Assembly: GCF_004010195.1 (NCBI RefSeq)
Contig: NC_057719.1
Location: 23,183,686-23,247,685, forward strand
Length of the DNA stretch: 64,000 bases
Direction of reading: 5' to 3'
Origin: Chiloscyllium plagiosum
Lineage: Eukaryota
The notes beneath the pieces are model-generated. The model worked only from the letters and a program-made list of their open reading frames with translations. It ran no database searches and was not told the origin of the DNA. Shown one piece after another: positions 3,411 to 60,314 of the stretch. Both the position numbers and the translations under genes were made by a program. Each line of letters starts with the position of its first letter. The first letter of the stretch is position 1.

Positions 3411-4554
3411 AAAATTTCAGAGCATGCTTGGTGTGAATATAGTGGATTTTACAATAATCAAATATTATGATTATATTTACTCATACCAGCTTAATGTATC
3501 AGATTTTATTAAACTGGTTTCAAATTCTCCATCTGCTATGTTGGGATTTGAATTAAAATTCATTAAATTATTTGTCCAGCTCCCTGAATTGCTATTTCAA
3601 TAAAATAGCTACTACCTTGCTGAGCCTCTATATTATATAAATGTTTGCTACGTGGGAAACTGTTATGACACTTTGATCCTCTAACAGCAGCTCAAAGCTG
3701 TGCAGCAGGCTGGTTGATTGATGATCAAGATATTCCCTGCAGTCAAGGCTAATATTTCCAGCATAGATAGGAGAAGAAATATAATGAGACCCATGAGATA
3801 ACAAAAAAAACACAATAAAACACCTTAATGATAATCTGAAGTCTTGTTTACGTGACTTCAAAATCTCGTGGCGTCCAGTGAGAATGCCAGAATCATTGGA
3901 GCTTGTTCCTTAATGCTGAGGTGAAAAAAGGTTTTTTAGTTTCTGAAGATGAAGAGCCTAGTGATGAACTAGGGGCTGGTCTTTCACCTCTATTAAACAG
4001 TGTCCTTGAAACCAGAAATGATAATTAAAAGATGCATGAACACAGACCCAGAGAAATGAGGTGTTGCCTTATTACTGATAACTTTTTAAAAATTGCAGGT
4101 AAATGGGAAAATAAAGAAGAATTCTATGCTCAAAATGCAGGTTTGGCCAAAATCTATCAGACTTGTTAAGATCTGGGATCACCCAAGAACCTCCACTTTG
4201 CCTAAGTAAACAAAACCTCACTTTTTCCCATTATACATAAGAAAACATCATAGAGAATGTACATTGAATTTTGATTGCAACTAAAAATTGTGCAAAAAAT
4301 TGAAAAGATACATATCAAGAGACTGTCTAAAACAATTTTGTCAATTTTGTCAGAAATCACCCCCTCTGAAGTCAGTCTTGAGCCTTTCCCTAGAAAATAG
4401 ACTGATCACTGTATACAGCTGGCCAAAATAGGAAGAAAATGTAAAACAATTGAAACAAATAAAATAATAAAACAAGAGTGCTAAAAGTATATCGTTATGA
4501 AATTATAACGTTATGAAATAAAATATTTTTATAACTCTGCAAATATGAAAGATG

Positions 4555-4708
4555 GATCAGTGGTGCTGGAAGAGCACAGCAGTTCAGGCAGCATCGAGGA
4601 GCTTCAGCATTTTGCTGAAGCTCCTTGGATGCTGCCTGAACTGCTGTGCTCTTCCAGCACCACTGATCCAGAATCTGGTTTCCAGCATCTGCAGTCATTG
4701 TTTTTACT
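4555..4708 (+). mobile_element. Hairpin mini-PLE (family A)
   Basis: Near-perfect inverted arms centred at ~4610, tail on the right only, 14-bp TSD AAATATGAAAGATG at 4541-4554 and 4709-4722. Confidence 0.9.
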
Positions 4709-4804
4709 AAATATGAAAGATGTTCAATTCTAATACATCTCAATGTCAGCAAATGACAAATTGTCTGTGGACATGTAAAAGAATCAGGAAAAAATGTCAG
4801 GGCC

Positions 4805-4940
4805 ACTTATCTCTTCCACCCTGGATGCTCCCTGCCTTCAGTCCTGATGAAGGGCTTTTGCCCGAAACGTCGATTTTGCTGCTCCTTGGATGCTGCCTGA
4901 CTGGCTGTGCTTTTCCAGCACCACTCTAATCTAGACTCTC
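4805..4940 (+). mobile_element. Neptune-type PLE 3' end (family A)
   Basis: Same sequence as the 3' end of the 23605-24240 PLE fragment. Confidence 0.85.
4840..4875 (+). ncRNA. Minimal type I hammerhead ribozyme motif
   Basis: agtc CTGATGA a gggc tttt gccc GAA ACGT C gatt: intact core, stem II, palindromic stem III, stem I agtc/gatt; predicted cleavage after C4871. Confidence 0.8.
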
Positions 4941-5950
4941 ATTTATCCTGTACTCCCAGTCATGGGAAATATGCATGTTGTGAATCTAAATAATGCTAAA
5001 TAATGCAATCAATGAAATGAGTGACTATTTCAGGAAGAATTCCTTTGCACTCTTTCTTTAATTTCTTAAGTCAATAGGCAAGTTTAATCTACAAGCTGAT
5101 ATATGTGGTTTGTGAAAAATTAAGCACTGGTATAACTTCCAATCCTGGTCTTGTGTTGAATTTGGGTTAAACTTACTCCTCATATTCCTGAGCCCCATGT
5201 AGTTTTCTGGCTTGACAACATTTTTAAAAAATCTTTCACGACAGCTCTCTCTAAATTAATCTTAATAGATCTTTGAAATATTTCTGGCATTTTGAAAGCA
5301 CAGAGTTTATTCTCGAAAAAAAATGTCAGAAGGCTTTGAGGGCAGGTTCAATTTTTAACAGAAGCAAACTTTTGTCAAATCTGGAAATCTAAAGTAAAAA
5401 CAGAAAATATTGGAAATATGCAGCAGGTCAACCTTGAACTGAAAGGTGAGTCCATGGTCTGAATTTTTCCTACTTGGAGACGGGGGCTGAGAAAAGAGTG
5501 CGAGCTATGTCAAAATTGTTCTCTCGGGCTTTGTTGAGCTGCAATTAGAATCAGTTCCTGCTTCATGGCAGCAGACAACTAATTAAGATGGTTAAGGCAC
5601 CAATTGGGGCAATTTTACAATTTTTAGCCAATGCAGAGGTTCTTGGGCCATGTGGAAAATCAATGGAGATGGTTTAATTGCAGCAGGGCAGAGGGGTCTC
5701 TCAGCTGAAGGCCCATGCTCTAGTAGTCAATCTCTGCAAGCAACTGAGTCATCAGACAGTTTCTCTGGAGTGTTTTCCCGTGCCCTCTGTGGAGCATACC
5801 TGTTTTGGCTATCGTCATGTTTTTCTTTCAGGCCACCCCTATGAGGGTATTTCTAGGTTGAGGAGTCCCCATGGTCCCAGAGTTAGTTCAGCAGCAACAA
5901 CTTGTCCCAGTACAGCTGGCAACTCTCTGATTGGGCCAGCAGCATCAGAG

Positions 5951-6091
5951 TTTAGATCAGAATGATGCTGGAAAAGCACAGCAGGTCAGGCAGCATCCTG
6001 CTCCTCGGATGCTGCCTGACCTGCTGTGCTTTTCCAGCACCACTCTGATCTAAACTCTGGTTTCCAGCATCTGCAATCCTCACTTTTGCCT
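5951..6091 (+). mobile_element. Hairpin mini-PLE (family A)
   Basis: Inverted arms centred at ~6002; 13-bp TSD AGCAGCATCAGAG at 5938-5950 and 6092-6104. Confidence 0.9.
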
Positions 6092-6227
6092 AGCAGCATC
6101 AGAGCTTACCCACTGTCCTTAACAAGCAACTAATTAGAAGGGCACCTAATTTGGGGAAAGTTGGTGCCAATTGGCATGCAGCCAGTAAATGCAGGATCAG
6201 CACCTCCATTTAGTCCCCACATCACAG

Positions 6228-6860
6228 AGGATAGTGAAGGCACCATTTGGTATGCTTACCTTTATTGGTCAGTGTATTGGGTATGGGAGTTCGGAGGTCA
6301 TGTCACAGCTGTACAGGACATTGGTTAGGCCACTTTTGGAATATTGTGTGCAGTTTTGGTCTCCCTGCTTTAGGAAGGATATTGTGAAAAGATTCAGAAA
6401 AGATGTACAACTATGTTGCCAGGGTTGGAGGATTTGAGCTATAGGGAGAGGCTGAACAGGCTGGGGCTATTTTCCCTGGAGTATTGGAAGCTGAGAGGTG
6501 TCCTTACAGAGGTTTATAAACTCATGGGGGGGTATCGATAGGGTAAATAGACAAAGTCTTTTCCCTAAGGGTAGCCAGTCCAGCATAGGTTTAAGGTGAG
6601 AAGGGCAAGATTTAAAAGGGACCTAAGGGGCAACATTTTCATGCAGTGTACAGAATGAGTTGCCAGTGGAAGTCATAGAGGCTGGTACAATTACAACATT
6701 TAAAAGGCATCTGAATGAGTGTATGAATAAGGAGCATTTACAGACATATGAGCCAAATGCTGGCAAATGGGACTCGATTAATTTAGGATGTCTAGTCAGT
6801 GTGCACGGGTTGGACTGAAAGGTCTGGTTCCATGCTGTTCATCTCTATGACTCTATGACT
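6228..6860 (+). mobile_element. CR1 (HER1-like) 3' fragment
   Basis: LYRTLVRPLLEYCVQFWSP; (CTCTATGA)n tail. Confidence 0.92.
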
Positions 6861-7549
6861 TTATCACATTCCTACAGCCTATAGCAAAATCCAGTCCACT
6901 ATTTCCAATTGATCCAAGGACACCAACTTGAAACTCGCATTCTATTTCTCTCTTTACATGTGCTGGATGACCTATTGAGGCTTTGCTGTTCATCTCAATT
7001 CTACTTTACTGTCAGTCTAAAATTATAGAAAAAACTTTTAACTGCTAGACCTCCTCAAAGAAATGGGAAACCAAACTTAAAACATTTCTTTTATGAAAGA
7101 AATCTAGTTATGATTTCAACACCGTTATAATTCCAAGCATAGAATGATATTTATTTTGGTTGGAAATCATGCGTCTGTCATTGGAATTGAATTGATATGA
7201 ACCAATGGGATGAAGTTTCAATGACAATCAGCCAAGATTCAAAGACAATCCAGAGACAACAGTCTGTTGAAAATCTCTAGACACTGGTTTCGATTTACAG
7301 CGATGCTGACCTTCAAACGCTGCTGATGAAATATATTAAAGGAAAGGAAGAACTTTAATGCCTATGAGAGAAAACCTCAACAAAATATTCTGTATGTGGA
7401 ATGGAATGGTGGTGTAAATGAGTGCCAGATCCCAGACTCAGAATTACAAAACTGCACTTGGTAAAAGTAAATGGTCTGATATTGATGTATCAGTAAAATA
7501 CTGTTTTGTTTCTCCTTGAATATTGTGGTCTCCAGTAAACGAGAGCATC

Positions 7550-7822
7550 AAAGGGTGAGAGGGGAAAGATTTAAAAGGGACCTTAGGGGCAACGTTTTCA
7601 TGTAGAGGGTGGTGCGTGTATGGAATGAGCTGCCAGAGGAAGTGATGGAGGTTCGTACAATTACAACATTTAAAAAGGCATCTGGAAGAATATATGGATA
7701 AGAAGGGTTTAGAGGGATATAGGCCAAATTCTGGGAAATGGGAGTAGATTAATTAAGATATCTGGTCAGCATGAATGAACTGGACCGAAGGGTCTGTTTC
7801 TGTACATCTCTATGACTCTATG
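7550..7822 (+). mobile_element. CR1 (HER1-like) 3' end
   Basis: FFxxRVVRVWNELP region and ctctatgactctatg tail. Confidence 0.88.
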
Positions 7823-7824
7823 GT

Positions 7825-8490
7825 GTGTATTTTCAAAGATCCGTGAAGGCAGCACAACACAAAGATAAAGTGTTTATGAAAGCATATGAGATACTTGGCT
7901 TTATCAGACAAGGCATTGAATACAAAACCAAGAAGTTTATGTTGGAGCTGTGTGTAACATGATTTAGATCACAGTGCAGTTCTGGTCACCACACCATAAG
8001 AAGGATGTGATCGTACAAGGGAGGGTACAGTAGAAATACACGAGGATGTTGCCTTTCTTCAAATATGAAGAAAGATTGGATAGGCTAGGGTCATTTTCCC
8101 TGGAGCAAAGGAGGCTGAGGGGCACCTGATTGAGGTGTACAAAGTTCTAAGGGGCATAGACATATAGATAGGGAGAAACTTTTCCCCTTAGTAGAGGGGT
8201 CAATAAACAGGGGGAACAGTTTCAAGGTAAGGAGAAGGCAGTTCAGAGTGGATTTGGGAAAAAGATTTCTCACCCACAAGATGGTGGGTATCTGGAACTC
8301 ACCATGTGAATGGCCGGTCGAGGAAGGGAACCCTCAAGATGTTGAAAAGTTATTTACATGAACACTTGAAACACCATGGTATGCAAGGTTTGGCCAATAC
8401 TGGAAAATGGAATTAGAATTATTTGATGACTGGCATAGATACAATGGACTGAAGGGCCTCTTTCAGTTCAGCCAAAACTCTATAACTCAA
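7825..8490 (+). mobile_element. Older CR1 3' fragment
   Basis: KAYxILGFI, QFWSP and LExRRLRG remnants; ggactgaagggcct 3' motif. Confidence 0.8.
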
Positions 8491-9159
8491 AAAATACATA
8501 GCTGGTAAGTCATCCTTTAAACTGTGTTGTGGTTAAACGCCTAACTAGCTTTCTCGATATAATAAGTCCAAACAAATCACTTTAATATTCATTTGCATGT
8601 CACAATTATCTCGGATTCAATTTCCAGGACTCTAGCTATGTGACTTATAGACTCAGCACTAGCAGCATTGTCTAAAACCACTAATTTGAAGATTAAATGA
8701 AAACAAGAGGAACTGAACAAGAAATAAGTATTTTCTTGTCCCAGCAATCATAATCATTTTCTTTCTGCCATGTATTCCTCTCATGTGTTTGAACTTGTCA
8801 AAAACTTATTTGCCCAGTTTAACGTGATCGAATTTCCACTTTATTCTCTCTTCAAACCTCTTTATTTCACAGATTGTTGTATACAATTCAACAATTCTAT
8901 GATTGATGTACTAAATATACCCACTAGGTGATGCACAAGAGTAATTCAGGCAACTTCCGCTGGTAAAGTACCTGCTTCCACTTGACAAAGAACGATCCTC
9001 TTTCTTTGTTCTTCAGTGCAAAGTTAGTGCAAACTCTCCAACATGTTTTCAAAAAATGTTGTCTGTTAGTGTCCACTTCCTATCAATGCAGCATTTTTCA
9101 TGCTTTGTAACCTTTCACAAATACCAACATAAGTCCTTTGTCTCCCTTAACCTTGTATT

Positions 9160-9300
9160 CTGGATTCGAGTGGTGCTGCAAGAGCACAGCAGTTCAGGCA
9201 GCATCCGAGGATGCTGCCTGAACTGCTGTGTTCTTCCAGCACCACTCGAATCAAGAATCTGGTTTCCAGCAACTGCAGTCATTGTTTTTACCTAGTTGAT
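9160..9300 (+). mobile_element. Hairpin mini-PLE (family A)
   Basis: Inverted arms centred at ~9207; 14-bp TSD CTTAACCTTGTATT at 9146-9159 and 9301-9314. Confidence 0.9.
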
Positions 9301-9569
9301 CTTAACCTTGTATTGCAAGGGTAAAGGTTATGATTAAGAGGGTGCAAAACAGAAGGGCCAGAAATCACAGACCATTTGCGACCAAGGATGCAGGAAATAG
9401 AAGCCTGAAGTCTTTGAGTCAGAGTTTTGGGAGCTTGAGAAGAGGTTAAAAAGCACAGCCAATGAAGAACAATTTCTGTTCCTTTTTTCCCAGTGCCACA
9501 CAGTAGCAAGTATAGAAATAACAGGATAAACTAGATTTATATGTTCCAACTGGGATTATATCTCAGTAT

Positions 9570-9696
9570 TCCTGAAGAAGGGCTAATGCCCGAAACGTCG
9601 ATTCTCCTGTTCCCTAGATGCTGCCTGACCTGCTGCGCTTTTCCAGCAACACATTTCCATCTCTGATCTCCAGCATCTGCAGACCTCACTTTCTCC
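9570..9696 (+). mobile_element. Mini-PLE starting at the hammerhead core
   Basis: CTGAAGA a gggc taat gccc GAAACGTC (9572-9599); 14-bp TSD TTATATCTCAGTAT at 9556-9569 and 9697-9710. Confidence 0.9.
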
Positions 9697-9779
9697 TTAT
9701 ATCTCAGTATGACATACTAGCGAGAAATGGAAGATGGTGAGGTTAATGGGAGGTTTGAAGCATAATGGAAGAGTGAAGC

Positions 9780-9995
9780 TAACCTGTGCTTGAGGATTTA
9801 GGATATCTGTGGCAAAAAGCACCTATTCAAAAGGGATGGTTTGCACCTCATAGATAAGAGAGACCAAATGGCCCTCTTCTGAGCTATACCAGTTCTGTGG
9901 CTATAAAAGTGAAGCAGGAAATTGGGCATTAGATTCCTGGGGAACTGGGACCAGCTCTGGAGCAAAAGAGCCTATTCAAGATGGATGGATTGGTA
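9780..9995 (+). mobile_element. Fossil CR1 ORF1 esterase C-terminal fragments
   Basis: ttcaaaagggatggtttgcacctc = FKRDGLHL; a similar decayed copy lies at ~9930-9990. Confidence 0.45.
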
Positions 9996-10957
9996 GACAA
10001 AATAGAAATTGAATGACAGGAGACGTTCAATGAAGGAAGTGTGAGTTGGGAGTAGATATATTCTTATGAGAGATAAAGAAAAGTCTAGACCTCCTTGAAT
10101 GATGAAAGATGATAGAGATTAAAATTAAACAAAAAAAGTATGATAAAAGTAGCACTCACTATACAGTAGAAAATCATGCTGAGCACATAGACAGAGCTAT
10201 AAAAGTAGAGGTGTAGTTCTCTCTGGCCAGGTTATTCAAAAGTCTACCTGTCTGAAGGGTCAGTGAATATCATTCAATCATTCTATGATTTTCCATATAT
10301 CAAATTGCTTTTTGGCCTTTTTGTTCCGAGTTCCTTTTGTGTGTTTAGCTTGATGGCCTTTCACAAATTCCATTTGCTTTTCCATCCTTATTAGTCTGAA
10401 AAAAACATCAAAATGTGAGTTAATAATACAATTTGAAGTACCTTTAAAGTTTATGTGCTCAATAAGCAATTACAAACAAAGGCTTTGACACTGAGATTAT
10501 GGTGCTTACAATCTGTGTGAGATTCATTTTAATGAATTAAACGTTTTGGAAACATTAGTGAAGTGTACATCAATAAATACTTCATACAAGAAAGTTGTGT
10601 CACAGTAAAAAGGCACAGTATTACAGGGAATTGCTGTAAACTCAATTACAGTAATAAACCACTGCATTTGTACTCTTGTCGAAACCTTTGTTTTCAACTT
10701 GTTGCAGTATCACTTTGTTGAGAATTGCCACTAGTAGCAAACTGGGAACAAGCATTTTGTACAGAACTTCTGATGCTACTTCACTCCAGTGCAATAAACT
10801 AATTGGAATACACACAAGAACATGTATCCTGTATGGAGTATCTGGAAACACTTCACCATGGTTCAAAGTTTGGGACACGATTTGTAGCTCGGGTGCTCGT
10901 TGTTGTGGTTCTGTTCACCGAGCTGGGAATTTGTGTTGCAGACGTTTCGTCCCCTGT

Positions 10958-12476
10958 CTAGGTGACATCCTCGGTGCTTGGGACCCTCCTGTGAACCACT
11001 TCTGTGATCTTTCCTCCACCATTTGTAGTGGTTTGAATCTGCCGCTTCCGGTTGTTAGTTCCAGCTGTCCGTTGTAGTGACCGGTATATTGAGTCCAGGT
11101 CAATGTGCTTATTGATTGAATCTGTGGATGAGTGCCATGCCTCTAGGAATTCCCTGGCTGTTCTCTGTTTGGCTTGTCCTATAATAGTAGTGTTGTCCCA
11201 GTCGAATTCCTGTTGCTTGTCATCTGTGTGTGTGGCTACTAAGGATAGCTGGTTGTGTCGTTTCGTGGCTAGTTGGTGTTCATGGATGCGGATCGTTAGC
11301 TGTCTTCCTGTTGGTCCTATGTAGTGTTTTGTGCAGTCCTTGCATGGGATTTTGTACACTACATTGGTTTTGCTCATGTTGGGTATCGGGTCCTTCGTTC
11401 TGGTGAGTTGTTGTCTGAGAGTGGCTGTTGGTTTGTGTGCTGTTATGAGTCCTAGTGGTCGCTGTAGTCTGGCTTTCAGTTCGGAAATGCTCCTGATGTA
11501 TGGTAGTGTGGCTAGTCCTTTGGGTTGTGGCATGTCCTCGTTCCATTGTCTTTCCCTTAGGCATCTGTTGATGAAATTGCGCGGGTATCCGTTTTTGGCG
11601 AATACATTGAATAGGTGTTCTTCTTCCTCTTTTTGCAGTTCTGGTGTACTGCAGTGTGTTGTGGCCCTTTTGAATAGTGTCTTGATGCAACTTCTTTTGT
11701 GTGTGTTGGGGTGGTTGCTTTCGTAGTTCAGGACTTGGTCTGTCTGTGTGGCTTTCCTGTATACCTTTGTGGTGAATTCTCCATTTAGGTGTTCTCTGCA
11801 CCATCACGTCTAGAAATGGGAGTTGGTTGTCCTTTTCTTCCTCTCTAGTGAATCGGATTCCTGTGAGTGTGGCGTTGATGATCCGGTGTGTGTTCTCTGT
11901 TTCAGTGTTTTTAATGATTACAAAGGTGTCATCCACATATCTGACCCAGAGTTTGGGTTGAATTTGCGGTAAGACTGTTTGTTCTAATTTTTGCATTACC
12001 ACTTCTGCTATGAGTCCAGAGATGGGTGAGCCCATGGGTGTGCCATTGATTTGTTCATATATTTGGTTGTTGAATGTGAAGTGTGTTGTGAGGCACAGGT
12101 CCAGTAGTTTGAGTATGCAGTCTTTGTTGATAGGTTCCTGTTGTCTGTTCTGTATGTCCAGCAGGTTGGCTATTGTTTCTCTGGCTAGGGTTTTGTCGAT
12201 AGAGGTGAACAGTGCTGTTACATCGAATGAGACCATGGTTTCTTCCTTGTCTGGGTGTATATTTCTGATGATGTCCAAGAATTCCTGTGTTTACTGTATA
12301 GAATGTCTGGATCTGCTGATCAGGTGTTTCAATTTCTGCTGTAGTTCTTTAGCCAGTTTGTGTGATGGTGTCCCTGGTAGTGATACTATGGGTCTGAGTG
12401 GGATGTCTGGTTTGTGCACTTTAGGTAGTCCATAGAATTGGGGGTGTTGTTGCTTTCAGGTTTCATTCTTTGTAAC
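10958..12476 (-). pseudogene. PLE reverse transcriptase + GIY-YIG endonuclease ORF, 5'-truncated and frameshifted near 11785
   Basis: MVSFDVTALFTSI, QINGTPMGSPIS, WVRYVDDTF and LPFLDV; then VVYKIPCKDCTKHYIG.TGR...RIHEH and REFLEAWHS. Confidence 0.95.
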
Positions 12477-13104
12477 ATACCCGCGCAATTTCATCAACAG
12501 ATGCCTAAGGGAAAGACAACGGAACGAGGACATGCCGCAACCCAAAGGACTAGCCACACTACCATACATCAAGAGCATTTCCGAACTGACAGCCAGACTA
12601 CTGCGACCATTAGGACTCATAACAGCACACAAACCAACAGCCACTCTCGGGCAACAACTCACCAGGACGAAGGACCCGATACCCAGCATGAGCAAAACCA
12701 ACGTAGTGTACAAAATCCCATGCAACGACTGCACAAAACACTACATAGGACAAACAGGAAGACAGCTAACGATCCGCATCCATGAACACCAACTAGCCAC
12801 GAAACGACACGACCAGCGATCCTTAGTAGCCACACACACAGATGACAAGCAACATGAATTCGACTGGGACAACACTACTATTATAGGACAAGCCAAACAG
12901 AGAACAGCCAGGGAATTCTAGAGGCATGGCACTCATCCACAGATTCAATCAATAAGCACATTGACCTGGACCCAATATACCGGCCACTGCAACGGACAGC
13001 TGGAACTAACAACCGGAAGCAGCAGATTCAAACCATTACAAATGGTGGAGGAAAGATCACAGAAGTGGATCACAGGAGGGTCCCAAGCACCGAGGATGTC
13101 ACCT
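12477..13104 (+). pseudogene. Inverted duplicate of the GIY-YIG endonuclease region
   Basis: VVYKIPCNDCTKHYIGQTGRQLTIRIHEH; a 1-bp deletion at ~12918 truncates it at AREF*. Confidence 0.93.
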
Positions 13105-13126
13105 AGACAGGGGACGAAACGTCTGC
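13087..13126 (+). ncRNA. Variant minimal hammerhead (mirror copy at 10938-10977, -)
   Basis: gca CCGAGGA t gtc a cct agac agg g gac GAA ACGT C tgc; stem I gca/tgc; the core has C in place of U4. Confidence 0.65.
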
Positions 13127-14027
13127 AACACAAATTCCCAGCTCGGTGAACAGAACCACAACAACTTCACCATGGTAACAAGACATGAGCTGGAGCACCA
13201 TTATGAAAAGGAAAGTGAGTAGCATTGGTGGGAGCATGTATTGAGGGAAATCAAAATCTGGACTAGCATTTCAGGAAAAGCAGAACAGCGACTATCAGTA
13301 TTAACTGAAAAAATTTGCAGAATGGGCTGCAGTTGTGAATGTTATAGACACAATAAGTTCATACTAGGATGCAACTTTCAGCACTTATTTCCAATGGCAT
13401 TTCCACACAATAGTAAGTCTAAATACTAAAGATATTGAGGGTAAACGGTATTCTCATTGTCAGAGAGGAATCACTTCAAGACAATAATTGTATTTCATCA
13501 ATTGAAGGTCTGATCTACTTTTTTTTGTGGATCTTTCATGATTTCTGGTGATATTCCTTTGCTACTGCTGATCCAAAAAAATGCTCTAAATGTTACAATC
13601 GTTAACAAGAATGAGAATACTTTTATGATCAAGTTAGGAATTGGTACCTCTTCTATTTAAAGAGATAAACTTGAAATACCAATTGCTTAGTAAAAGAATA
13701 AAGCCACAAAATTCCACAATTTTAAATGAACAGATGAAATTTAACTATACAAGAAATAAAAAGCAGGGGTCATGATTTATCTGATGTTCTAACATCTAGA
13801 ATTAATAGGCAAAATATGTTAAACACATAACAGACTGCATATTAAATGGCAGACAGAACCAAGATAGGTCCCACAAATTTCTTAGCAACTCACGCAGACA
13901 TGAATGAAGACTTTAATTCACAATTTGTTTCCAGAACTTCCTTCCGAAGGACAAGAACAGTCAATCTCTTTTGAAGATAGCTCTGTTTCCTGCATCAGCA
14001 ACATCAACTTAGACAGATCCAACCACC

Positions 14028-14219
14028 TAGGAGAAAGTGAGGACTGCAGATGCTGGAGATCAGCGTCGAAGAGTGTGGTGTTGGAAAAGCACAGCAGGTC
14101 AGGCAGCATCCAAGGAGCAGGAGAGTCAACATCTTGAACAGCTTATGCTCGAAACGTCAATTCACCTGCTCCTCAGATGCTGCCTAACCAGCTGTACTTT
14201 TCTAGCACCACACTCTTCG
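14028..14219 (-). mobile_element. Hairpin mini-PLE (family A)
   Basis: Inverted arms with the tail on the left; TSD AGATCCAA(C/T)CACC at 14015-14027 and 14220-14232. Confidence 0.88.
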
Positions 14220-14558: not shown

Positions 14559-14842
14559 TAAAGCTCCTGACAGCACTTCAGTTGCACAGACCTAGTGACA
14601 TTCTCCTTCATCTGTTCTCTACCAATCATGTTGCATTGTTCCTTTCTGTGCTGCACACTCAGTCCCAATGATTGTGTTTTTTTGCCACAAACTAAGTCAC
14701 ATGTGAAAACCTTCTGCATCGTCCCAGGTCCCACAGTTGTGGTATCAGTAAAACAAACACTTTCAGCACTCTTTCACAAATGCTTGGCTTATCTTCCTTC
14801 CCCTTTCTGCACTTATGCTAGGGTTTCAAGCATAGTTTGAGA

Positions 14843-14967
14843 CAAAAAAAACTGCAGATGCTGGAATCCGAAAGTTCCAGGCAGGAGACTGGAAGAACAC
14901 AGCAAGCCAAGTAGCCTCAGGAGCTGGAGAAGTTGACATTTTGTTTGTAATCCTTCTTCAGGACTGA
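14843..14967 (-). mobile_element. PLE 3' end with a decayed hammerhead
   Basis: ctgcagatgctgga tail; the reverse complement reads gtcCTGAAGAagg... Confidence 0.65.
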
Positions 14968-22916: not shown

Positions 22917-23256
22917 TTTGGAGATGCCGGTGTTGGACGGGGGTGTACCAAGTTAAAAATCAATACCAGGTTATAGTCCAACAGGTTTAATTGGAAGCAC
23001 ACTAACTTTCGGAGTGTCGTTCCTTCATCAGGTGATAGTGGAGGACACAATTGTAAGGCACAGAATGAAAGACTCACAGACAATCAAGGTATTTTTCAAT
23101 GTATAATTTCAGTTACATCACACTGTAAATTCTTGCTATAAATTCTGTGCCTTACAATTGTGTCCTCCACAATCACCTGATGAAGGAGTGGTGCTCCGAA
23201 AGCTAATGTGCTTCCAATTAAACCTGTTGGACTATAACCTGGTGTTGTGATTTTTA
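22917..23256 (-). mobile_element. Hairpin mini-PLE (family B) with two opposed hammerheads
   Basis: Arms ~22950-23066 and ~23143-23258; cac CTGATGA a ggagt ggt gctcc GAA AGCT A at 23174-23205; 12-bp TSD ACTCTTCTTTGA at 22905-22916 and 23257-23268. Confidence 0.9.
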
Positions 23257-23604
23257 ACTCTTCTTTGACTTGGTGAATGCTACATTGGACACATTACTGA
23301 AAACAACCAATGCTGGAGATCACAGCAAGTCAGACAGCATTCAGAAAGAGAGAGGAAGCTAACATTTCAAGTCTAGATGATGCTTCATCAGAGTTGAAGT
23401 GAAGTGTGGAGGGGATAGCATTTATGCTGCAGTTTGGAGGAAGTGGAGTAGTGGGTGAAGGGTACAGGTGGAGAAAAGGTATTGACAGTTCAGATTAAGT
23501 GAGAATGGTAGGACAATGGTGTGTCTCCTGCCACTTGAAAGGACAGACTGGGGTGGGGGAGGAGAGAGAGAGGAAATGATAACAAGCTAAAAGAAAGGAA
23601 AGGA

Positions 23605-24240
23605 ATGCGCCCCCCCTCCAACCGTAACAAGGACAGAACGCCCCTGGTGCTCACCTTCCACCCTACCAACCTTCACATAAACCAAATCATCCGCCGACAT
23701 TTCCGCCACCTCCAAACAGACCCACTACCAGGGGTATATTTCCCTCCCCACCCCTTTCTGCCTTCCGCAAAGACTGTTCCCTCCATAACTACTGGTCAGG
23801 TCCACGCCCCCCAACAACCCACCCTCCCCTGGCACTTTCCCCTGCCACCACAGGAATTGCAAAACCTGCGCCCAAACCTCCTCCCTCACCTTCATATAAG
23901 GCCCTAAAGGAGCCTTCCACATCCATCAAAGTTTTACCTGCACATCCACCAATATAATTTATTGTATCCATTGCTCCCGATGCGGTCTCCTCTACATTGT
24001 ATCCATTGCTCCCTCACCACCAGACGCGTGGAGGAAGAACGCCACATCTTCGGCCTTGGAACACTTCAACCCCATGGCATCAATGTGGACTTCAACACCC
24101 CCTCCTCTCACTTATCTCTCCACCCTTCAGGCTCTCTGCCTGTATTCCTGATGAAGGACCTTTGCCCGAAACGTCGATTTTATTGCTCCTTGGATGCTGC
24201 CTGAACTGCTGTGCTCTTCCAGCACCACTAATCCAGAATC
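23605..24240 (+). mobile_element. Neptune-type PLE fragment (family A), RT thumb/linker/GIY-YIG remnant + 3' end
   Basis: PLVLTFHPTNLHINQIIRRHFRHLQTDP, Cys linker, IIYCI.CSRCGLLYI and IFGLGTLQPHGINVDF; hammerhead core at 24148. Confidence 0.88.
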
Positions 24241-24387
24241 ATAATTTGAAGACGTTGAACTCAGTATTAAATCCAGACGGCTGTAACGATGAGCTGTCGT
24301 TCCTCCAGTTTGCGCTGTGATTCACTGGAACACTGTAGCATGCCGCAGACAGATCTGGGCATACGGGCAGAACACTGCGTTAATATG

Positions 24388-24577
24388 GAGAAAGTGAGGA
24401 CTACAGATGCTGGAGATCAAAGTTGAGAGTTAGTGCTGGAAAAGTACAGCAGGTCAGGTAGCATCCGCAGAGTAGGAGACTCGAGGTTTCGGGCATTCCT
24501 GATGAAGGCCTTATGGCCAAAATGTCGATTCTCCTGTTCCTCGGATGCTGCCTGACCTGCTGTGCATTTCCAGCACA
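24388..24577 (-). mobile_element. Hairpin mini-PLE (family A)
   Basis: Inverted arms; hammerhead remnant CTGATGAaggccttatggccaaaatgtc at 24499. Confidence 0.85.
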
Positions 24578-24854
24578 ACTGGAAGGTCGGGGTCATGCTT
24601 GTGCACAAACTGGAGCTATTCTGCAAAGTGGTCATAGAGTCTGCGTTTGGTTCTCCATTGTAGAGTAGAGGTGCAGTGAATACAATATACAGATTAGAGG
24701 AGCCAAAGATAAAATGCTGCTTCACCTGGAAAGACTGTTTAGGCCTTTAGATGGTGTGCAGGGATGAGGGGAAGGGGCAGATGTTGCATCTTCTATAGTT
24801 ACATGGGAAGATGTTGTGGATTCTGGTCTCAGTCTCTGGCTTGCTTCTTACAAT

Positions 24855-25305
24855 TAACATCACACAGCACCAGGCTATAGTGCAACAGGTTTATTTGGAA
24901 GTATTAGCTTTCAGAGTGCTGCTCCTTCGTCAGGTAACTAGTGGGGCAAGATCATAAGACACTGAATTTAGAGAAAAAGATCACAGTGTCATGCAATTAA
25001 AATGATATATATCATTTCTTACAGATAGATTATTAATCAAGCAATCAAATTAGTCCCGAAATTCCAAAAGCATTTGTCACCATTCTGAATTTTTCTCCAC
25101 AACATTTCCATATATGTCGTTTTGATTGTCTGATACTGTGATCATTTGCTATAAAATCTGTGTCTTATGAACCTGCCCCACTAACCACCTGATGAAGGAG
25201 CCACACTCTGAAAGCTAGTACTTCCAAATAAACCTGTAGGACTATAACCCGTGTTGTGTGATTTTTAACTTTGTCCACTCCAACCCAATACTGGCATCTT
25301 CACGT
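24855..25305 (+). mobile_element. Hairpin mini-PLE (family B)
   Basis: ~130-bp inverted arms; cac CTGATGA aggag..ctct GAAAGCTA at 25186-25217; tail on the right only. Confidence 0.85.
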
Positions 25306-29082: not shown

Positions 29083-29220
29083 NNNNNNNNNNNNNNNNNN
29101 NNNNNNNNNNNNNNNNNNNNNNNNNNNNNNNNNNNNNNNNNNNNNNNNNNNNNNNNNNNNNNNNNNNNNNNNNNNNNNNNNNNNNNNNNNNNNNNNNNNN
29201 NNNNNNNNNNNNNNNNNNNN
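29083..29220. other. Assembly gap (138 N) inside the CR1
   Basis: Run of n. Confidence 1.
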
Positions 29221-36103: not shown

Positions 36104-36340
36104 CTAGATAAAAACAAGGACTGCAGATGCTGGAAACCAGAGTCTAGATTAGAGTGGTGCTGGAAAAGCACAGCAGGTCAGGCAGCATCCAAGGAGCAGG
36201 AAAATCAACATTTCGGGCAAAAGCCCTTCATCAGGAATAGAGGCAAGGTGCCTGCAGAGTGGAGAGATTATCAAAACATCGATTTTCCTGCTCCTCGGAT
36301 GCTGCCTGACCTGCTGTGCTTTTCCAGCACCACTCTAATC
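36104..36340 (-). mobile_element. Hairpin mini-PLE (family A) with a hammerhead
   Basis: Reverse complement CTGATGAagggcttttgcccGAAA at 36210-36235; 16-bp TSD CATT(C/T)CCAAAAATACA at 36088-36103 and 36341-36356. Confidence 0.9.
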
Positions 36341-47807: not shown

Positions 47808-48235
47808 TTAGAAGCATAGAAAATAGGTGCAGGAGTAGGCCATTTGTCCTTCAAGCCTACACCAGCATTCAATATGATCATGGCTGATCATGCAATCTCA
47901 GTATCCCATTCCCACCCTCTTTCCATATCCCTTGACCTCTTTAGCTGCAAGGGCCACATCCAGCTCTCTTTTGAATATGACAGAAGTGGGTACTGCAGAT
48001 GCTGGAGATTAGTGTCAAGATTAGAGTGGTGTTGGAAAAGCACAGCAGGACAGGCAGCATCCAAGGAGCAGAAAAAATGACATTCATCCTGATGCTGCCT
48101 GCCCTATTGTACTTTTCCAGCACCACTCTAATCTTGACTCCCTCTTGAATAGCTTTCCACAGATTTACAATTCTTTGAGTGAAGAAATTCTGCCTCATCT
48201 CAGTCCTGAATGGCTTACCTCTTTATTCTTAGACT
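47808..48235 (-). mobile_element. CR1 3' end containing a hairpin mini-PLE (47978-48137)
   Basis: NFFTQRIVNLW; hairpin flanked by imperfect CTC.CT.TTGAATA repeats at 47964-47977 and 48138-48151. Confidence 0.85.
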
Positions 48236-48789: not shown

Positions 48790-49662
48790 TAATCATCCTC
48801 CATCATTTACACCACCTACAAACAGACCCCACCACAAGAGATATATTTCCCTCCCCACCCCTTTCTGCATTCCACAGAGACCATTTCCTCTGCAACTCCC
48901 CCATACTAAGTCCATGCCCCACACCAACCCACCCTCCACTCCTGGCACCTTCCCTTGCCACCACAAGAGGTATAAAACCTGTGCCCAACCACCCCCCCCA
49001 CCCACCTCCGTCCAAGGCCCTAAAGGATCCTTCCACGTCTGGCAGAGATTTTCTTGCACCTCCACGCACGTCACCTACTGTATCCGTTGCTCCCGATGTG
49101 GTCTCCTTTATATTGAGGAGATAGGGTGGCAACTTGTGGAACGTTTCTGAGAACATCTCTGGGACATATGCACTAAACAATCCCACTGCCCTATGGCCGA
49201 ACACTTCAGCTCTCCCTCCCACTCCGCCAAGTACATGCAGGTCCTGGGCCTCCTAGATTCTAGCTACCCAACGCCTGGAGGAAGAACATCTCATCTTCCA
49301 CCTTGGCACCCTCCAATCACAAGGAATCAATGTTGATTTCAGCAGTTTTTTCATCTCCTCTCACCCCACCTTATCACAGATCCAACCCCCCAACCTGGCA
49401 CCGCCCTCTTGATCTGTTCTACCTGTCCATCTTCCATTCAACCTATCCACTTCCCCCACCCCCGACCTTTTACCATCACTTCCCACGTTCATCTACCTAT
49501 CACATTCCCAGCTACATTCCCCCCAGTCTCAACCCCTCCCATTTACGTCTCAGCGCCCTTGGGCCTCCCCTACACTCCTGATGAAGAGCGTATGAAGAGC
49601 GGCTCTCCTGCTCCTCGGATGCTGCCTGACCAGTTGTACCAATCCAGTAAAACACTTTTTGA
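48790..49662 (+). mobile_element. Neptune-type PLE 3' fragment
   Basis: LQTDPTTRDIFPSPPLSAF, PGTFPC...KTCA and FSCTSTHVTYCIRCSRCGLLYIEE...ERF (Cys linker + GIY-YIG); family A 3' end. Confidence 0.9.
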
Positions 49663-49677: not shown

Positions 49678-49885
49678 GGAGAAAGTAAACACTGTAGATG
49701 CTGGAGATCAGAGTCGAGAGTGTAGTGCTGGAAAAGCACAGCAGGTCAGGTTGGAGGGTTACAAGGTGAAAGATAAAGCATTTTTTTCCTCCATTGCTGA
49801 TAAAGGGCTTATGCCCGAAACAATGATTCTCCTGGTCCTCGGATGCTGCCTGACCTACTATGCTTTTCCAGCACCACACTCTTGG
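49678..49885 (-). mobile_element. Hairpin mini-PLE (family A)
   Basis: 15-bp TSD CAACTACCTGAATAA at 49663-49677 and 49886-49900; hammerhead remnant at 49797-49822. Confidence 0.88.
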
Positions 49886-50084: not shown

Positions 50085-50863
50085 CATATAGAATCATACA
50101 GCACACAGAGGAGACCCTTTGGCCCATTGAGTCTGCACTGACCTATCTACACTGATCCCACTTTCCAGGACCTGGTCTATAGCCTTGATGTCATAACATT
50201 TCAAGTCCTTATCCACATACCTTTTAAAGATTGAGGTTTCCCACCTCTATTACTCTCCTAGATAGTGGAAATTCCCGCACAACCATCTTGGCAAAAAGTC
50301 CCTCAAATCCCTCTCCATCTCCTGCCCTTCACCTCCAATAAATGGGAACTGTTGAATGGGAATCCAACCTGTTCAGACCCCTTTTATTTTATTTGCCTCA
50401 ATCAGTTTACCCCTCAGATTCCACTGCCCTAAAGAAAACAACCCAAGTCTCTTCATAGGTAACATTCTCCAAACCAGGCAACATCCTGCTGAGCCTCCCA
50501 TATAATCCTTGTGTGCCTGTAATCTATGAAGAAGGGCTCATGCCCGAAACGTCGATTCTCCTGCTCCTTGGATGCTGCCTGACCTGCTGCGCTTTTCCAG
50601 CAACACATTTTCAGCTGTAATCTATGCCATGATTGACAAAGACAAGTGTCCTTCATGCCACTTTAACTACCCTATTAACTTGTTTTGCTGCTTTAAGGAA
50701 TCTGTAGTCAAGCACCCCAAGAGTTTTCTGTTCCGCTGTTACTGCTTCCTAGTGTCCTGCCACTCCATTATCCTGTTGCATCTTCCAAGTGTATCTACTT
50801 CACAATTTTCAAGATTGAATTCCATTTGCCACTGACCTGCCCTTCTAACCAACCATCTATATC
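50085..50863 (-). mobile_element. Old CR1 3' fragment containing a mini-PLE
   Basis: atagaatcatacagcacac tail; ttgaattccatttgccac = WQMEFN. Confidence 0.75.
50529..50614 (+). mobile_element. Mini-PLE beginning inside the hammerhead core
   Basis: 12-bp TSD CTGTAATCTATG at 50517-50528 and 50615-50626; (tg)aagaagggctcatgcccGAAACGTC. Confidence 0.9.
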
Positions 50864-51176: not shown

Positions 51177-51181
51177 TGACC

Positions 51182-52681
51182 CAATAACTCATGACAGTTT
51201 GAAGGGGTAGAGGTAATAGAGTGTTCTTCTATCCATTTTGTTCCATCTTCCATCTGAAGCAGGCATTTGTCTGATGCAGGCTGCCTGAAAAGGGCTGTCT
51301 GGAGAGGATTCTCCCTGACTCTGAGCATTTTATGATAAAGTGTATTTCTAACAGCTGGTAGTTAATGCTGTTGTCAATCCTCTATTTGAAACCTTTCAGT
51401 GGATACTGAAAGTGTCATTACTGTAATATAAGATTTTGTTCCCACATTATTAAGCACCTGGCCAATCTTTGTGTCAATCTTATTATCACCACCCACATTC
51501 TAATCCATATTGTTTATATATGTCACGAACAACAAAGAGCAACACTGATCCCTGTGGTACGTCCTGTTACACAACATTGAAGACCAGTCTAGGAATGGTG
51601 GCAAACAACAGTGGAGTAGATTAAACTGGAAACAAAACCTTGTTTTCAGCAGAAAATACTAAGTCTCCTGCATAAACTATAAAAATTTATGATAGATATA
51701 GGTCAGATGTCAGGGGTAGTTTCTTTAATCAGAGAATAGTAGGGGCATGGAACAGACTGCCTGAAACATTGGTAGACTTGCCAACTTTAAGGGCATTTAA
51801 ATGGTCATTGGATAGACACATGGACAAAAATGGAATAGGGTAGGTTGGATGGGCTTTAGATTGGTTTCACAGGTCGACACAGCATCGAGTGCTGACGGGC
51901 CTGTACCTCGTATGTTTACTGAGTGAAGGCAAGGGCCTATGGTAAGTGTGCGGTTAGCATGAAAGGTAATTAGGAAAGGGGGCATGGGTGAGGTTGGTAG
52001 GGATGGGTAGAGGGTCAGGTGGGTGAGAGGATTAGCTTGGCAGGTGGATGAGGTTGCATATGTTGACAAGTGGGTGAGGGGATAGGGTGTGAAATAAATG
52101 AATGCATACGTAGGGTAGGGCCAGGATTTAGGGTATGTCAGGCTGTGTTGAATCTGACAGGATTGAGGTAGGATCGGTAGGTGGGTACATACATTTTGTA
52201 GTACTTTCTGTGCAGTGGGAAATCTGATATAATTGCTTGTACCACAGCAAATGGCCTTATCCAAATGTTCAAAAACAATTCTCAGAAATCAAGACGAAAG
52301 GAAGGTAGAAAAAAATCACATGAATTGTCACATCATTGAGGCCATGATATTCGATTTTCTGATGTCTAGATTTATCCAGTTTTTTTCTTCAACAAAATGA
52401 CAACTAATCCTCAGATGATGATGGCAATGGTCATTCTGACATCTTGAATGGCATCCCATCCACTGAAATGTTTCAAATAGAGGATTGACAACAACATTAA
52501 CTACCAGCTGTTAGAAATACACGTTATCATAAAATGCTCCGAGTCAGGCAGCAATCCTCTCCAGACAGTCCTTTTTAGGCAGTCTGCATCAGATAGATGC
52601 CTGCTTCAGATGGAAGATGGAACAGAAGGGATGGAAGAACACTGAATTACCTCCAGCCCTTCAAACTGTCATGGGTTATTG
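51182..52681. repeat. ~225-bp diverged inverted repeat pair (51182-51404 / 52458-52681)
   Basis: e.g. tatttctaacagctggtagttaatg vs cattaactaccagctgttagaaata. Confidence 0.9.
51688..51920 (+). mobile_element. CR1 3' end
   Basis: Matches 21080-21300. Confidence 0.85.
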
Positions 52682-54650: not shown

Positions 54651-54659
54651 CACCAAGTC

Positions 54660-55460
54660 AGTCACCACTGCTTCATCTCCTTCCAATGCAATGCCACCAC
54701 TGATCACATCTTCCCCTTCCTTTCCCTTTCAGAATTCTGAAGGCACTATTCCCTCCCTGACATCCTGACCAGTTCCTCAGTCAGCTGAACACTCTGTTCC
54801 CTTCCCAGGGCATGTTTCCATATCAGCACAAGAAAGGTAACATCTCCCTTCTTATGTCATCTTTCCTCACCTTCCATGACCCTTAACGATCCTTCCAAGT
54901 GAAACAGAAATTTACATGTACTTTTTTAAATTTACTCGATTGTACTTGCTGCTCACAATGTATTTGGACCTACACTGGGGAGATCAAATTTGACTGGGTA
55001 AATGTTTTGCAGAACACCTCCATTCAGTCCACTAGAGTTAACCCAAACATCAAATTGCCCGTCACTTTAATTCTCCAGCCTGTTCTCACACTGACATCTG
55101 AAGCTCCATATTAGTTCACAGAGCATGACTGTACTCTTTGATTTGTAACATTCCAGACTAAACATAAAGCTTAACGATTTCAGACCAAACATTCTGGACT
55201 CATTTCATTCCTTTTTATTCTTGTAGGTTTGTATTTTACTCTTATTTTTTCCCCAGTTCTGCTTTTGGACAGCAGTTAGACATTATTCTGCCATGTACTC
55301 TTCCTAAGCACCCATCATTTGTTTCATTACTTGGCCCACTACTATGCTCTTTAGCTCTGCTCAACCAACTCTTCTGTCATTTAAGCTCATTCACATTCCT
55401 CACTTTTGATCTTTTGCCTGCCTTCTCACTTATCGGTTCCTTAAAACCTACTGACAAGGA
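54660..55460 (+). mobile_element. Old Neptune-type PLE fragment
   Basis: KQKFTCTFLNLLDCTCCSQC..YTGE resembles the GIY-YIG start at 49040-49130. Confidence 0.7.
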
Positions 55461-56102: not shown

Positions 56103-56328
56103 CTGAAAATGTGTTGCTGGAAAAGCGCAGCAGGTCAGGCAGCATCCAGGGAACAGGAGAATCGACGTTTCGGGCATAAGCCCTTCTTCAGGAATGAGGC
56201 ATTCCTGAAGAAGGGCTTATGCCCGAAACGTCGATTTTCCTGTTCCCTGGATGCTGCCTGACCTGCTGCGCTTTTCCAGCAACACATTTTCACCTCTGAT
56301 CTCCAGCATCTGCAGACCTCACTTTCTC
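56103..56328 (+). mobile_element. Young hairpin mini-PLE with back-to-back intact hammerhead cores
   Basis: ~92-bp arms with about one mismatch around a 3-nt loop (56197-56199); CTGAAGA at 56205-56211, GAAACGTC at 56225-56232; TSD ctgcaaaaaa(a)cYaag. Confidence 0.93.
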
Positions 56329-56614
56329 CTGCAAAAAAACTAAGGTCCACTTTCACATGGAAATATGTGGAAAATTCCAGATTCGTTTGGCCAAAAATAG
56401 AGGGTCAATGTTTAATGAGATCGACTATTACTCGAGAATATGCAGTGCATTTTCAGCCTCTGCTGTTTTACTGCTATAAAGTAGACTTGTCAGACACCAA
56501 CTGTCCAAAGGAAACAAAAGTTAGTAATATGAAGAAATAAGTCACAAGAATCTCTATGAATCAATACAACCTGAACTGGTGGGTGAGGTCAGTAAGGGAG
56601 TGTGATTGAGAGAC

Positions 56615-57871: not shown

Positions 57872-58556
57872 AGGAAACCTCGATTATCCGAACGAGATGG
57901 ACGGGCATTATTCCGTTTGGATAATTGATTATTCCGTTAATTGATTGAATGCCTCTCCTCTGGGGCTCGGAGTTTTCTATTAAGTCTGCACCCTGTTCAG
58001 GAGACCCCAACCACCCCCCAACCCCATCCAGCAGCACCGCCCCCTGTGCACCCCCTTTCCGCGACCATTCCGCCCACCTCTCTGGGACACCTGGACTAGA
58101 CACCAACAACAAGACTGCTGCTGCTGCCTTTTGTTGGGGGGGGTGGGGGTGGGGGTGAGTCTCCAAATACTGTGCGCGCGCATACACACACACAGACACA
58201 CACACAGACAACGTTTTACTGCAACTATTTGACAAGTTCCACCTTTGCCCTGTAAAGGACAATGTTGGAGAAATTATCTGGGGAAGCGGGGTTTAGAGTA
58301 CATGCCTGTGCAAAACTCCAGGGAAAGTGTAGGGAGAGAGAGAGGGCAGGCGGTCAGTTATTTGGAGATGGTGCCTGGGGTCCCATCGATGTCCAGGACT
58401 GTTCTTGGCAGTACTTCAGTAAGCCGAGTTCATTTTTAATCACTGTAAATAGAAGACACGATCAGTGTTGGAAACATGTCTTTGATGTAATGTTTCCATC
58501 AGGACCTCAAGATTTCCTTCGGATAATCTAATATTCGGATAATTGATATTCTCCTG
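57872..58556. mobile_element. Non-autonomous Tc1/mariner (pogo/Tigger-like) element
   Basis: TIRs aacctcgattatccgaa / ttcggataattgatattctcctg followed by TA; appears inserted in a short tRNA-like SINE (57790-57872 + 58560-58655, -). Confidence 0.7.
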
Positions 58557-58959
58557 TATAGCAAACTCAGCTAGTGTGGGAATGGAACCCAAAGTGTTGG
58601 TATCACTTCATATTCAGAAACCAGCAGTCCAGCCAACTGAACTATCTCAACCCCAGACTCAGAGGTATACATGGTAAAGACACAAGTATGCTGTCTGACT
58701 TAAGGCCATGAGTACAGTAAATAGAATGCAGAATAAGGTTTTTCTTTCTCCCTGCAACCTTGGATACATCTCTGTTTGGATTTCTATACTTAGCATGCTC
58801 AGTTCTAATGCAAAGCAACAATAAAGCAGCAGCTGCTATGTGGAATGTTGATACAGTTGACCTTGTAACATGAGATCCAGACTATTTTATGAAAATAATT
58901 GTGGGGCTCGTTTATATAGGATCCTCCATGTTTCTGTTGGCCACAGGAAGCTTTAGCTA

Positions 58960-59213
58960 TGGCACGGTGGCTCAGTGATCAGCACTGTTGCCAGGGACCT
59001 GGGTTCGATTCCAGTCTCAGATGACTGGCTGTGTGGAGTTTGCACATTCGCCCTGTGTCTGCATGGTTTTCCTCTCACACTCCAAAGATGTGCAGGTTAT
59101 GTGGATTCGCCATGGGATATGCAAGATTACAGGGGTAGGATGGCTCTGGGTGGGAAGCTGTTCAGAGGGTCAGTGTGGCCGAATGGCCTGCTTCCAAACT
59201 GTAGGGATTCTAT
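58960..59213 (+). mobile_element. HE1-like V-SINE
   Basis: tggcacggtggctcagtg...gggttcgattcc. Confidence 0.88.
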
Positions 59214-59414
59214 AGTCAATGAACAGAAGTGAGAAAGCAAGAAACCGCTAGCAATGGGGACACTGTGAAGGGAGGGCTCTGAGAAAGTCAAATAATTAAG
59301 TAATTCTCGGCAAAGCCAAATGTTTCCTTATGAAAGGAATGCCTTTACTCACACCAAGTCCACAGCAGCTTCCTTGTTCAGCTACAGTAAATATTTCAGT
59401 CAGGCCCCACCATC

Positions 59415-59638
59415 AAGGAGCAAATTACTGCAGATGCTGGAATCTGTCCTGAAATCAAAAATGCAGGAGATCACAGCAGGTCAGACAGCATCCATTGAGA
59501 GAGAGCAAACTAACATTTGGAGTCCACCTGACTCTTCATCAGCAGCTGTGATGAAGAATCATCTAGACTTGAAACGTTGGCTTGCTTTCTCTTCATAGAT
59601 GCTGCCTGACCTGTTGCGATCTCCAGCACTTTTTGTTT
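59415..59638 (-). mobile_element. Hairpin mini-PLE (family D) with opposed hammerhead remnants
   Basis: TSD TCAGGCCCCA(C/T)CATC at 59400-59414 and 59639-59653; tgatgaagaatcatctagacttGAAACGTT. Confidence 0.85.
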
Positions 59639-60314
59639 TCAGGCCCCATCATCTGTCAATTAATGAGAGGACCCCACTGGCTTCAGGCAGACACTTTTAC
59701 AATTATTCAGACAAGCAGGTTGAGAGATCAGACCTGTGCGTAAGCTATCTCAGCAATTTTAGCTGCCTGCAAACTCTCTACCCTTCCATTGTCAGGAAAA
59801 AAAGACACAAGGATTTCTCAGGATTCTCTTCCTTTGCTTTTCAGCAATCTTCATACTTGCTTTCCCAATAATCATCATGGAGTTATGTCCTGAACTTTAA
59901 TCCTGAGATATATTGTGTGCAGAAGTTTGGTGTTATAAGTTAAGCAAATCTGGATGAATGAGTTTCTTATGAGTCTGGCTTGTATTAATTGCAGGGGAAA
60001 GGTAATTGCAGGGGAGTCCTATTATTCATGTTTCTGTGTCATTCCAACCCATTCCAGCAGCCTGTTAGGGAGAAAGAAATCTCTTTTGAGGGTAGCCTGT
60101 TTCACACGTATGTAGGTTATGAGAGCTGGTAAATGTAATGAGGCCATGAGAGAGATCAAATTGGGAGAGGGGTTCCGCTAATTACTTGGTCATGGCCTAA
60201 TCATAATCATGAGAAGTGGTGAGGAGGCTTCCAGTTATTGGAAAGTGGAGGTGGGAGGGCAGACGGAATGGATGGTGGTCACTTGAGGCATCTACAGGTG
60301 GGGGTTTACTGAAG

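Follow-up and report, generated by a model that had tools for sequence, protein, structure and literature searches.

A 64,000-nucleotide stretch of the genome of Chiloscyllium plagiosum (RefSeq assembly GCF_004010195.1, contig NC_057719.1, positions 23,183,686 to 23,247,685, forward strand; hereafter the window) carries 14 inverted insertions, 13 of them short hairpins and one large. The hairpins are very probably dead-on-arrival, heavily 5'-truncated insertions of endonuclease-bearing Penelope-like elements (PLEs), in the form of an inverted copy plus a tail that is usual for this class. Their arms and junctions favour a mechanism in which both nicked strands of the target prime reverse transcription, one at each of two start sites of the reverse transcriptase (RT), and the two truncated complementary DNAs (cDNAs) are then joined head-to-head. 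We give this reading a probability of about 0.55. The structure itself is ordinary, a known insertion pattern of PLEs in which the junctions are a modest clue to the mechanism, and the main value of the observation is therefore practical and mechanistic.

Hairpin insertions with a one-sided tail

Self-BLAST and an inverted-repeat search of the window recovered all 12 fold-back insertions listed in an earlier sequence-only reading together with the large unit at 10863-13163, and a family search of the window added a short hairpin at 1841-1997 that was absent from that list (Table 1). The 13 short units, referred to here by their first position, sum to 2,810 bp or 4.4% of the window; most of them measure 140-435 bp and have no open reading frame (ORF) between the arms. 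Arm-to-arm identity ranges from 79.7 to 98.9% across the inverted units, suggesting that the insertion activity was spread over a long time. The tail, as that reading had claimed, is confined to one arm in 14/14 units, with a length of 35-45 nt in the 12 measured units that bear a target-site duplication (TSD), and the position of the centre is unique in each of the 14.

In a TSD scan, 12 of the 14 units reached a score of at least 8, as did one among 298 boundary pairs drawn at random. The TSD length varies from 9 to 16 bp among these 12 units. Most copies had been said to carry clean TSDs, and ten of the 12 previously listed hairpins have one of 12-16 bp, in some cases with mismatches or an indel; for the remaining two, 24386 and 24856, none was found, a wider outward search included. 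An assembly artefact, or the chance adjacency of two copies, is suggested by the great abundance of the family and by the trouble that palindromes give to assemblers. Against it, one TSD pair encloses both arms in 12/14 units, the arms diverge by up to 20%, and contigs from another organism extend into hairpins 5951 and 9160. Together, the TSDs and these contigs refute this explanation, to which we attach a negligible probability.

The cross-organism comparison covered window positions 1700-10800 and four of 24 sequencing runs. Contigs of the second, sister organism (organism B) are ~3-4% divergent from the window. One of them joins 9555 straight to 9697 and presents an empty site for the single-arm copy at 9570, the gap being exactly the 127-nt copy plus one copy of the 14-bp TSD; a run from a second study is consistent with this, its left piece not being displayed. 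In both organism B runs a contig ends at 4540, immediately ahead of the TSD that flanks hairpin 4555, where 113 and 124 letters remain unaligned. The continuing piece is not displayed, and this near-perfect hairpin is probably absent from organism B. Hairpins 1841, 5951 and 9160 are common to organism B, where the tail of 1841 is also present. Within the window, paralogues of the host repeat span an empty site for one of 16 inserts (60378), the other spanning match being that of unit 49678 to itself. The search for empty sites proposed in the sequence-only reading thus yielded a site with a single TSD copy at 9570 and a probable one at 4555. Such species-specific copies are usable as phylogenetic markers.

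A non-autonomous palindromic element, that is, a miniature inverted-repeat transposable element (MITE) or a retrozyme-like master copying itself whole, would be in keeping with the small size, the hairpin shape and the high abundance of the units; repeat bins are 4-5 orders of magnitude deeper in reads than unique flanks, a ratio that is not a copy number. This explanation appears highly improbable, given that no two centres are alike, that the units belong to three families with TSDs of 9-16 bp and asymmetric ends, and that the same ends extend into endonuclease-coding copies. The uniform length and interior, symmetric terminal repeats and fixed short TSD of a MITE were not found, nor were identical junctions, and a MITE is largely refuted in the window. 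In agreement with the sequence-only reading, the hairpins are not copies of one MITE master; the 14 different centres indicate that each was made anew at insertion.

Family identity of the hairpins

The short units fall into three families, none of which is that of the large element: nine belong to family A, one to family A4 and three to family B. The 3' end of the nine family A units is common to two long copies, 23614-24240 and 48819-49650. The endonuclease remnant of family A is 84% identical to a shark protein, P0001, which has an RT, a linker and a GIY-YIG domain and aligns to the long copies at E 1e-41; its own domain matches (GIY-YIG, E 2.5e-4; RVT_1, E 0.008) both fall short of the Pfam cut-offs. 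A CX2-5CxxC linker before GIY-YIG was found in family A, and also in the old copy adjoining the A4 end. By linker motif and protein match, families A and A4 are assigned to a putative Neptune type (or Nematis). Family A4 (unit 59415) appears to be an older relative, whose long copy would, to judge from adjacency, run from 24854 to 23300 on the minus strand. The region 23300-24854 is a nested cluster, in which an old minus-strand Neptune-type copy seems to be split by the long family A copy and hairpin 24386 and to end at hairpin 24856. A further decayed Neptune-type endonuclease remnant lies at 54731-55098 (+).

With regard to family B (1841, 22917 and 24856), no copy in the window extends into coding sequence, and the tentative assignment is by hammerhead core, tail and geometry. 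The earlier view of the hairpins as PLE 3' ends is supported, with a tie to an endonuclease for family A and, by adjacency, a probable one for family A4. Pfam returned no family for the family A frames, a homologue search from one degenerate endonuclease frame gave no match, and no full-length or partial-tandem (pLTR-ORF-pLTR) source copy was found in the window. Minimal hammerhead motifs gave seven strict matches in the window and are degenerate in older copies; the core stands ~65-95 nt upstream of the tail, depending on the family. An Rfam profile search of the window listed no hammerhead. Pattern scans for further copies gave 0 matches in viral contigs and 0 in metagenome contigs, and exact matches of a 23-nt repeat pattern in three Algoriphagus genomes (one bacterial genus) were attributed to chance.

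The large unit matches RVT_1 at E 1.7e-10 and GIY-YIG only at E 0.042 in Pfam; its identity to P0002, a bamboo-shark protein, is 93%. It has no CX2-5CxxC linker, showing a gap of ~40 residues there relative to P0001 at an overall identity of 22%, which makes it Penelope/Poseidon-type under the definition given in PMC8557442. Judged on their sequences, the short hairpins are not miniatures of this element, although they share its geometry, as the sequence-only reading had stated.

Arms, centres and junctions

The extents of the arms were determined by mapping both arms onto other copies in the window. The tail-less arm reaches further 5' in five of the 14 units (9160, 14028, 22917, 24386 and 56103; differences in Table 1) and the tailed arm is longer in six, while three are ambiguous: 24856 on account of filler, 49678 of an internal jump, and 59415 of nearly equal arms. 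Where the centre is clean, the arms meet bluntly or with 1-3 nt in common; 5951 and 9160 have an identical 3-nt central word with the arms swapped. Whereas the centres vary, the tail-less end is constant, 35-45 nt from the tail end. Microhomology between target and element at this end totals 26 nt across the 12 units scored; the mean under the null is 4.1, and none of 2000 draws was as high. The best match of the tail-less arm is its own partner in seven of nine family A hairpins, one of them tied.

Two centres are of a different kind. Positions 49751-49793, at the centre of hairpin 49678, are 43 nt of the C-terminal coding region of the family endonuclease (79% to 49276-49316, E 5e-5), which may reflect a template jump or a later deletion within the tailed arm. 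The centre of hairpin 24856, at 24999-25110, consists of a short perfect palindrome followed by ~90 nt without a match in the window, and looks like snap-back plus filler DNA.

The curated set of arm 5' ends of families A and A4 numbers 24, with three long copies, three old single copies and the jumped arm of 49678 excluded. Eight of these ends sit at 4-8 nt on the upstream side of the hammerhead core (P = 0.002, the window having been set post hoc). These clustered ends (e.g. 56200, 24494, 49790, 14967 and 9570) are often at a TCA(G/T)TC word, which we take to resemble an initiator, and they possibly mark the start of the RNA. The spread of arm 5' ends, from -35 to +44, rules out that the centres are fixed at the site of hammerhead cleavage. 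In the predicted folds of 56200-56328 and 9570-9696, the pairing partner of the tail is a motif ~45 nt downstream from the hammerhead core, which would place the tail-less start site within a loop; three arm 5' ends coincide with the edge of the predicted tail stem.

Comparison with known PLE insertions

PLEs typically have an inverted, 5'-truncated copy next to the element and, on one side, a tail of 30-40 bp; how they insert head-to-head is still called undefined (Craig et al. 2021, PMC8557442). Arkhipova et al. (2013, PMC3846280) describe inverted units flanked by TSDs of 9-10 bp, together with a self-priming model. The shark units resemble the insertion units of endonuclease-bearing PLEs in these two papers in the head-to-head inverted copy, the tail at one end, the variable TSD (8-10 bp in the rotifer paper), the hammerhead motif in the terminal repeat and parents with GIY-YIG plus RT. 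They differ in being mostly 140-435 bp long, ORF-less and dense (13 units), in having longer TSDs (9-16 bp) and in that either arm may be the longer one.

According to Frangieh et al. (2024, PMC11167929), the PLE protein, a predicted dimer, cuts both strands of the target and extends each of them, and the tail corresponds to the interval separating two start sites of the RT. The Anolis Poseidon element PAc of that study is alike in having its tail between two RT starts downstream of the hammerhead and in the cutting and extension of both strands, whereas most of the short shark units are Neptune-type. Inverted insertions are not discussed in the text of PMC11167929, where the word 'inverted' occurs once, for a reagent, and not at all in the text of three supplements. 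Dual hammerhead motifs 100-700 bp apart on opposite strands have been described in Schistosoma (Cervera and de la Pena 2014, PMC4209133). The minimal metazoan PLE hammerheads of that paper share with the shark units the core CTGAnGA...GAAACGTC in the terminal repeat; conversely, only some shark hairpins keep the motif, as predicted from sequence, in both arms. No description of these shark families was found among the literature listings searched.

Twin priming of LINE-1 likewise starts cDNA synthesis from both nicked strands and links the products through microhomology within a single TSD; its two segments are non-overlapping, and the position of the second priming is variable. In the shark units, by contrast, the two cDNAs would start at two fixed sites and represent one and the same 3' end, with a hairpin as the outcome.

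Proposed two-ended priming and its rivals

In the mechanism that we favour, a GIY-YIG enzyme would nick both target strands 9-16 bp apart, giving rise to the TSD. One 3'-OH would prime at the distal RT start site and yield the tailed arm, and the other at a site ~38 nt upstream, yielding the tail-less arm, both aided by 1-5 nt of pairing between the target end and the RNA. Both cDNAs would terminate early and their 3' ends would be joined bluntly, via 1-3 nt of microhomology or with filler. Priming from one end alone would leave a single-arm copy, tailed or tail-less, and solo copies flanked by TSDs do exist in both forms, tailed (9570 and 14834) and tail-less (50529). The arm asymmetry in both directions, the fixed and microhomologous tail-less end, these solo copies and the findings of PMC11167929 together favour two-ended priming followed by end-joining. 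That both primings take place within a single event is something we infer. A two-ended priming model for PLE inversions was not found in the literature searched, in which subscription papers (e.g. Arkhipova 2006, the D. virilis work) were outside the scope.

The sequence-only reading had proposed cDNA fold-back or a template switch. A single tailed cDNA would fold back or switch template onto itself, copy up to the tail boundary and join the other target end, and units with a longer tail-less arm would owe this to a later central deletion. Several observations are consistent with such a process: centres are near-symmetric with loops of 2-8 nt at 4555, 5951, 9160, 56103 and 59415, arms match their own partners best, the tailed arm is the longer one in 6/14 units, as required, and the lengths of the arms are more symmetric than expected (P about 0.03). 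Under fold-back, every part of the tail-less arm should recur in the tailed arm, a rule that fails in 5/14 units, one of which has 98.9% identical arms. Moreover, it leaves the constant stop at the tail boundary and the TSD-flanked solo tail-less copies unexplained. As a general mechanism it is not upheld by these data, and we consider it unlikely. The asymmetry in both directions is the useful residue of the analysis, as it speaks against simple fold-back.

Several points weigh against two-ended priming. The symmetry of the arms exceeds what independent truncation would give, and is directly predicted by fold-back; in families A and A4 the arms of six of ten units are within 11 nt of each other (permutation P = 0.027, for a threshold chosen post hoc). 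Shared stop points, of the kind suggested by the arm ends clustered near the hammerhead core, could be an alternative source of this similarity. Three of the five cases with a longer tail-less arm differ by merely 3-5 nt, and any of the five could be explained by a later deletion at the centre of the palindrome, since unit 49678 indicates that arms can lose internal sequence. The microhomology at the tail-less end fits end-joining after fold-back equally well. Furthermore, the one-sided tail (14/14) demands a coupling of the two primings, and the in vitro work saw no strand difference in the start site (PMC11167929). The sample is 14 units from a single window, with arm ends curated by hand.

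A stricter version of two-ended priming would supply this coupling. Were a dimeric ribonucleoprotein to place its RT sites on both of the starts that flank the tail, exactly one tail per inverted unit would result, and the tiny hairpins would be explained by synthesis running off where the RNA begins, a short way upstream of the hammerhead. We hold this obligate form tentatively, at somewhat less than even odds. If it is true, the start sites seen in vitro would be tied to the unexplained head-to-head structure, for which sharks would offer a very large natural data set.

Another possibility is self-priming on an antisense template, leading to an inverted intermediate whose resolution by the endonuclease leaves the one-sided tail (Arkhipova 2013; Craig 2021). 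It was put forward to explain head-to-head structures of the same kind, whose junctions are palindromic (PMC3846280), and the ascription of the tail to endonuclease resolution (PMC8557442) would account for the strict one-sidedness. The shark units show 14 distinct centre positions and no fixed palindrome, the filler and template-jump centres resemble end-joining, and later in vitro mapping places the tail between two RT start sites on the sense RNA (PMC11167929). On this evidence antisense self-priming seems decidedly unlikely. A large set of young shark copies could, through their arm lengths and junctions, separate it from two-ended priming and from fold-back without an experiment.

Folding and transcripts

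Three hairpins were folded and gave z values of -13.8 to -18.5, and for none of the three did any of 200 shuffles reach the same stability; single arms folded no better than shuffles (z about -0.5). Nine Rfam matches were all under the cut-off, the best being to the microRNA (miRNA) family mir-3622 (E 2.8e-8, 58.1 vs 78 bits), and a miRNA gene is rejected in the absence of a match at the gathering score. The very stable folding and the sub-threshold family match of one hairpin nevertheless make for a real risk of mis-annotation, so that the earlier warning of confusion with miRNA precursors is plausible, even if the match that illustrates it lies below the Rfam cut-off. The units, at their share of the window, are open to misreading as MITEs or as hairpins of miRNAs.

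In the ORF listing of the window, no host exon was recognised. In one raw RNA run, of which ~2% was read, reads fall on repeat bins on both strands, 97% of them continue into unlike sequence, and the unique flanks are near zero. This run is uninformative for expression or editing of these loci, and its A>G counts are dominated by paralogous copies. A role of the hairpins as a source of double-stranded RNA is speculation.

Single-arm copies, long copies and neighbouring features

Table 1. Inverted units, single-arm copies and long copies in the window, with strand in brackets (TSD, target-site duplication; +n, arm longer by n).
Feature	Positions	Arms, centre and content	TSD
Hairpin E0, family B	1841..1997 (+)	tail-less arm 33 nt, tail 40 nt	1832-1840/1998-2006, 9 bp
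Hairpin E1, family A	4555..4708 (+)	98% arm identity; loop 3 nt	4541-4554/4709-4722, 14 bp
Hairpin E2, family A	5951..6091 (+)	tailed arm +11 nt; central microhomology 3 nt	13 bp
Hairpin E3, family A	9160..9300 (+)	tail-less arm +5 nt; central microhomology 3 nt	14 bp
Single-arm tailed copy, family A	9570..9696 (+)	hammerhead core	9556-9569/9697-9710
Large unit, Penelope/Poseidon-type	10863..13163 (-)	RT and GIY-YIG remnant; inverted arms 690 bp; tail 38 nt	13 bp
Hairpin E4, family A, old	14028..14219 (-)	tail-less arm ~+5 nt	13 bp, 1 mismatch
Single-arm tailed copy	14834..14967 (-)		11 bp
Hairpin E5, family B	22917..23256 (-)	tail-less arm ~+75 nt	12 bp
Long copy, family A	23614..24240 (+)	Neptune-type endonuclease remnant joined to hammerhead and common 3' end	
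Hairpin E6, family A	24386..24580 (-)	within older endonuclease remnant; tail-less arm +19 nt; central microhomology 3 nt	none
Hairpin E7, family B	24856..25290 (+)	~90-nt central filler	none
Hairpin E8, family A	36104..36340 (-)	tailed arm +54 nt	16 bp, 1 mismatch
Hairpin E9, family A	47978..48137 (-)	tailed arm +22 nt	14 bp, 2 mismatches
Long copy, family A	48819..49650 (+)	endonuclease remnant, 3' untranslated region, hammerhead-like end	
Hairpin E10, family A	49678..49885 (-)	tailed arm jumps into 43-nt endonuclease-coding piece	15 bp
Single-arm tail-less copy	50529..50614 (+)		own, 12 bp
Hairpin E11, family A	56103..56328 (+)	98.9% arm identity; hammerhead core on both arms; tail-less arm +3 nt	10 bp exact, ~15 bp with indel
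Hairpin E12, family A4, old	59415..59638 (-)	arm lengths ~equal	15 bp, 1 mismatch
Single-arm tailed copy	60378..60490 (+)	host is another repeat; paralogues of host repeat span empty site	

Two further features of the window were observed. An unrelated inverted-repeat pair of 224 bp, 91.5% identical and spaced by ~1.05 kb, lies at 51182-51404 and 52458-52681, and an assembly gap of 138 N occupies 29083-29220 within a LINE-like RT region.

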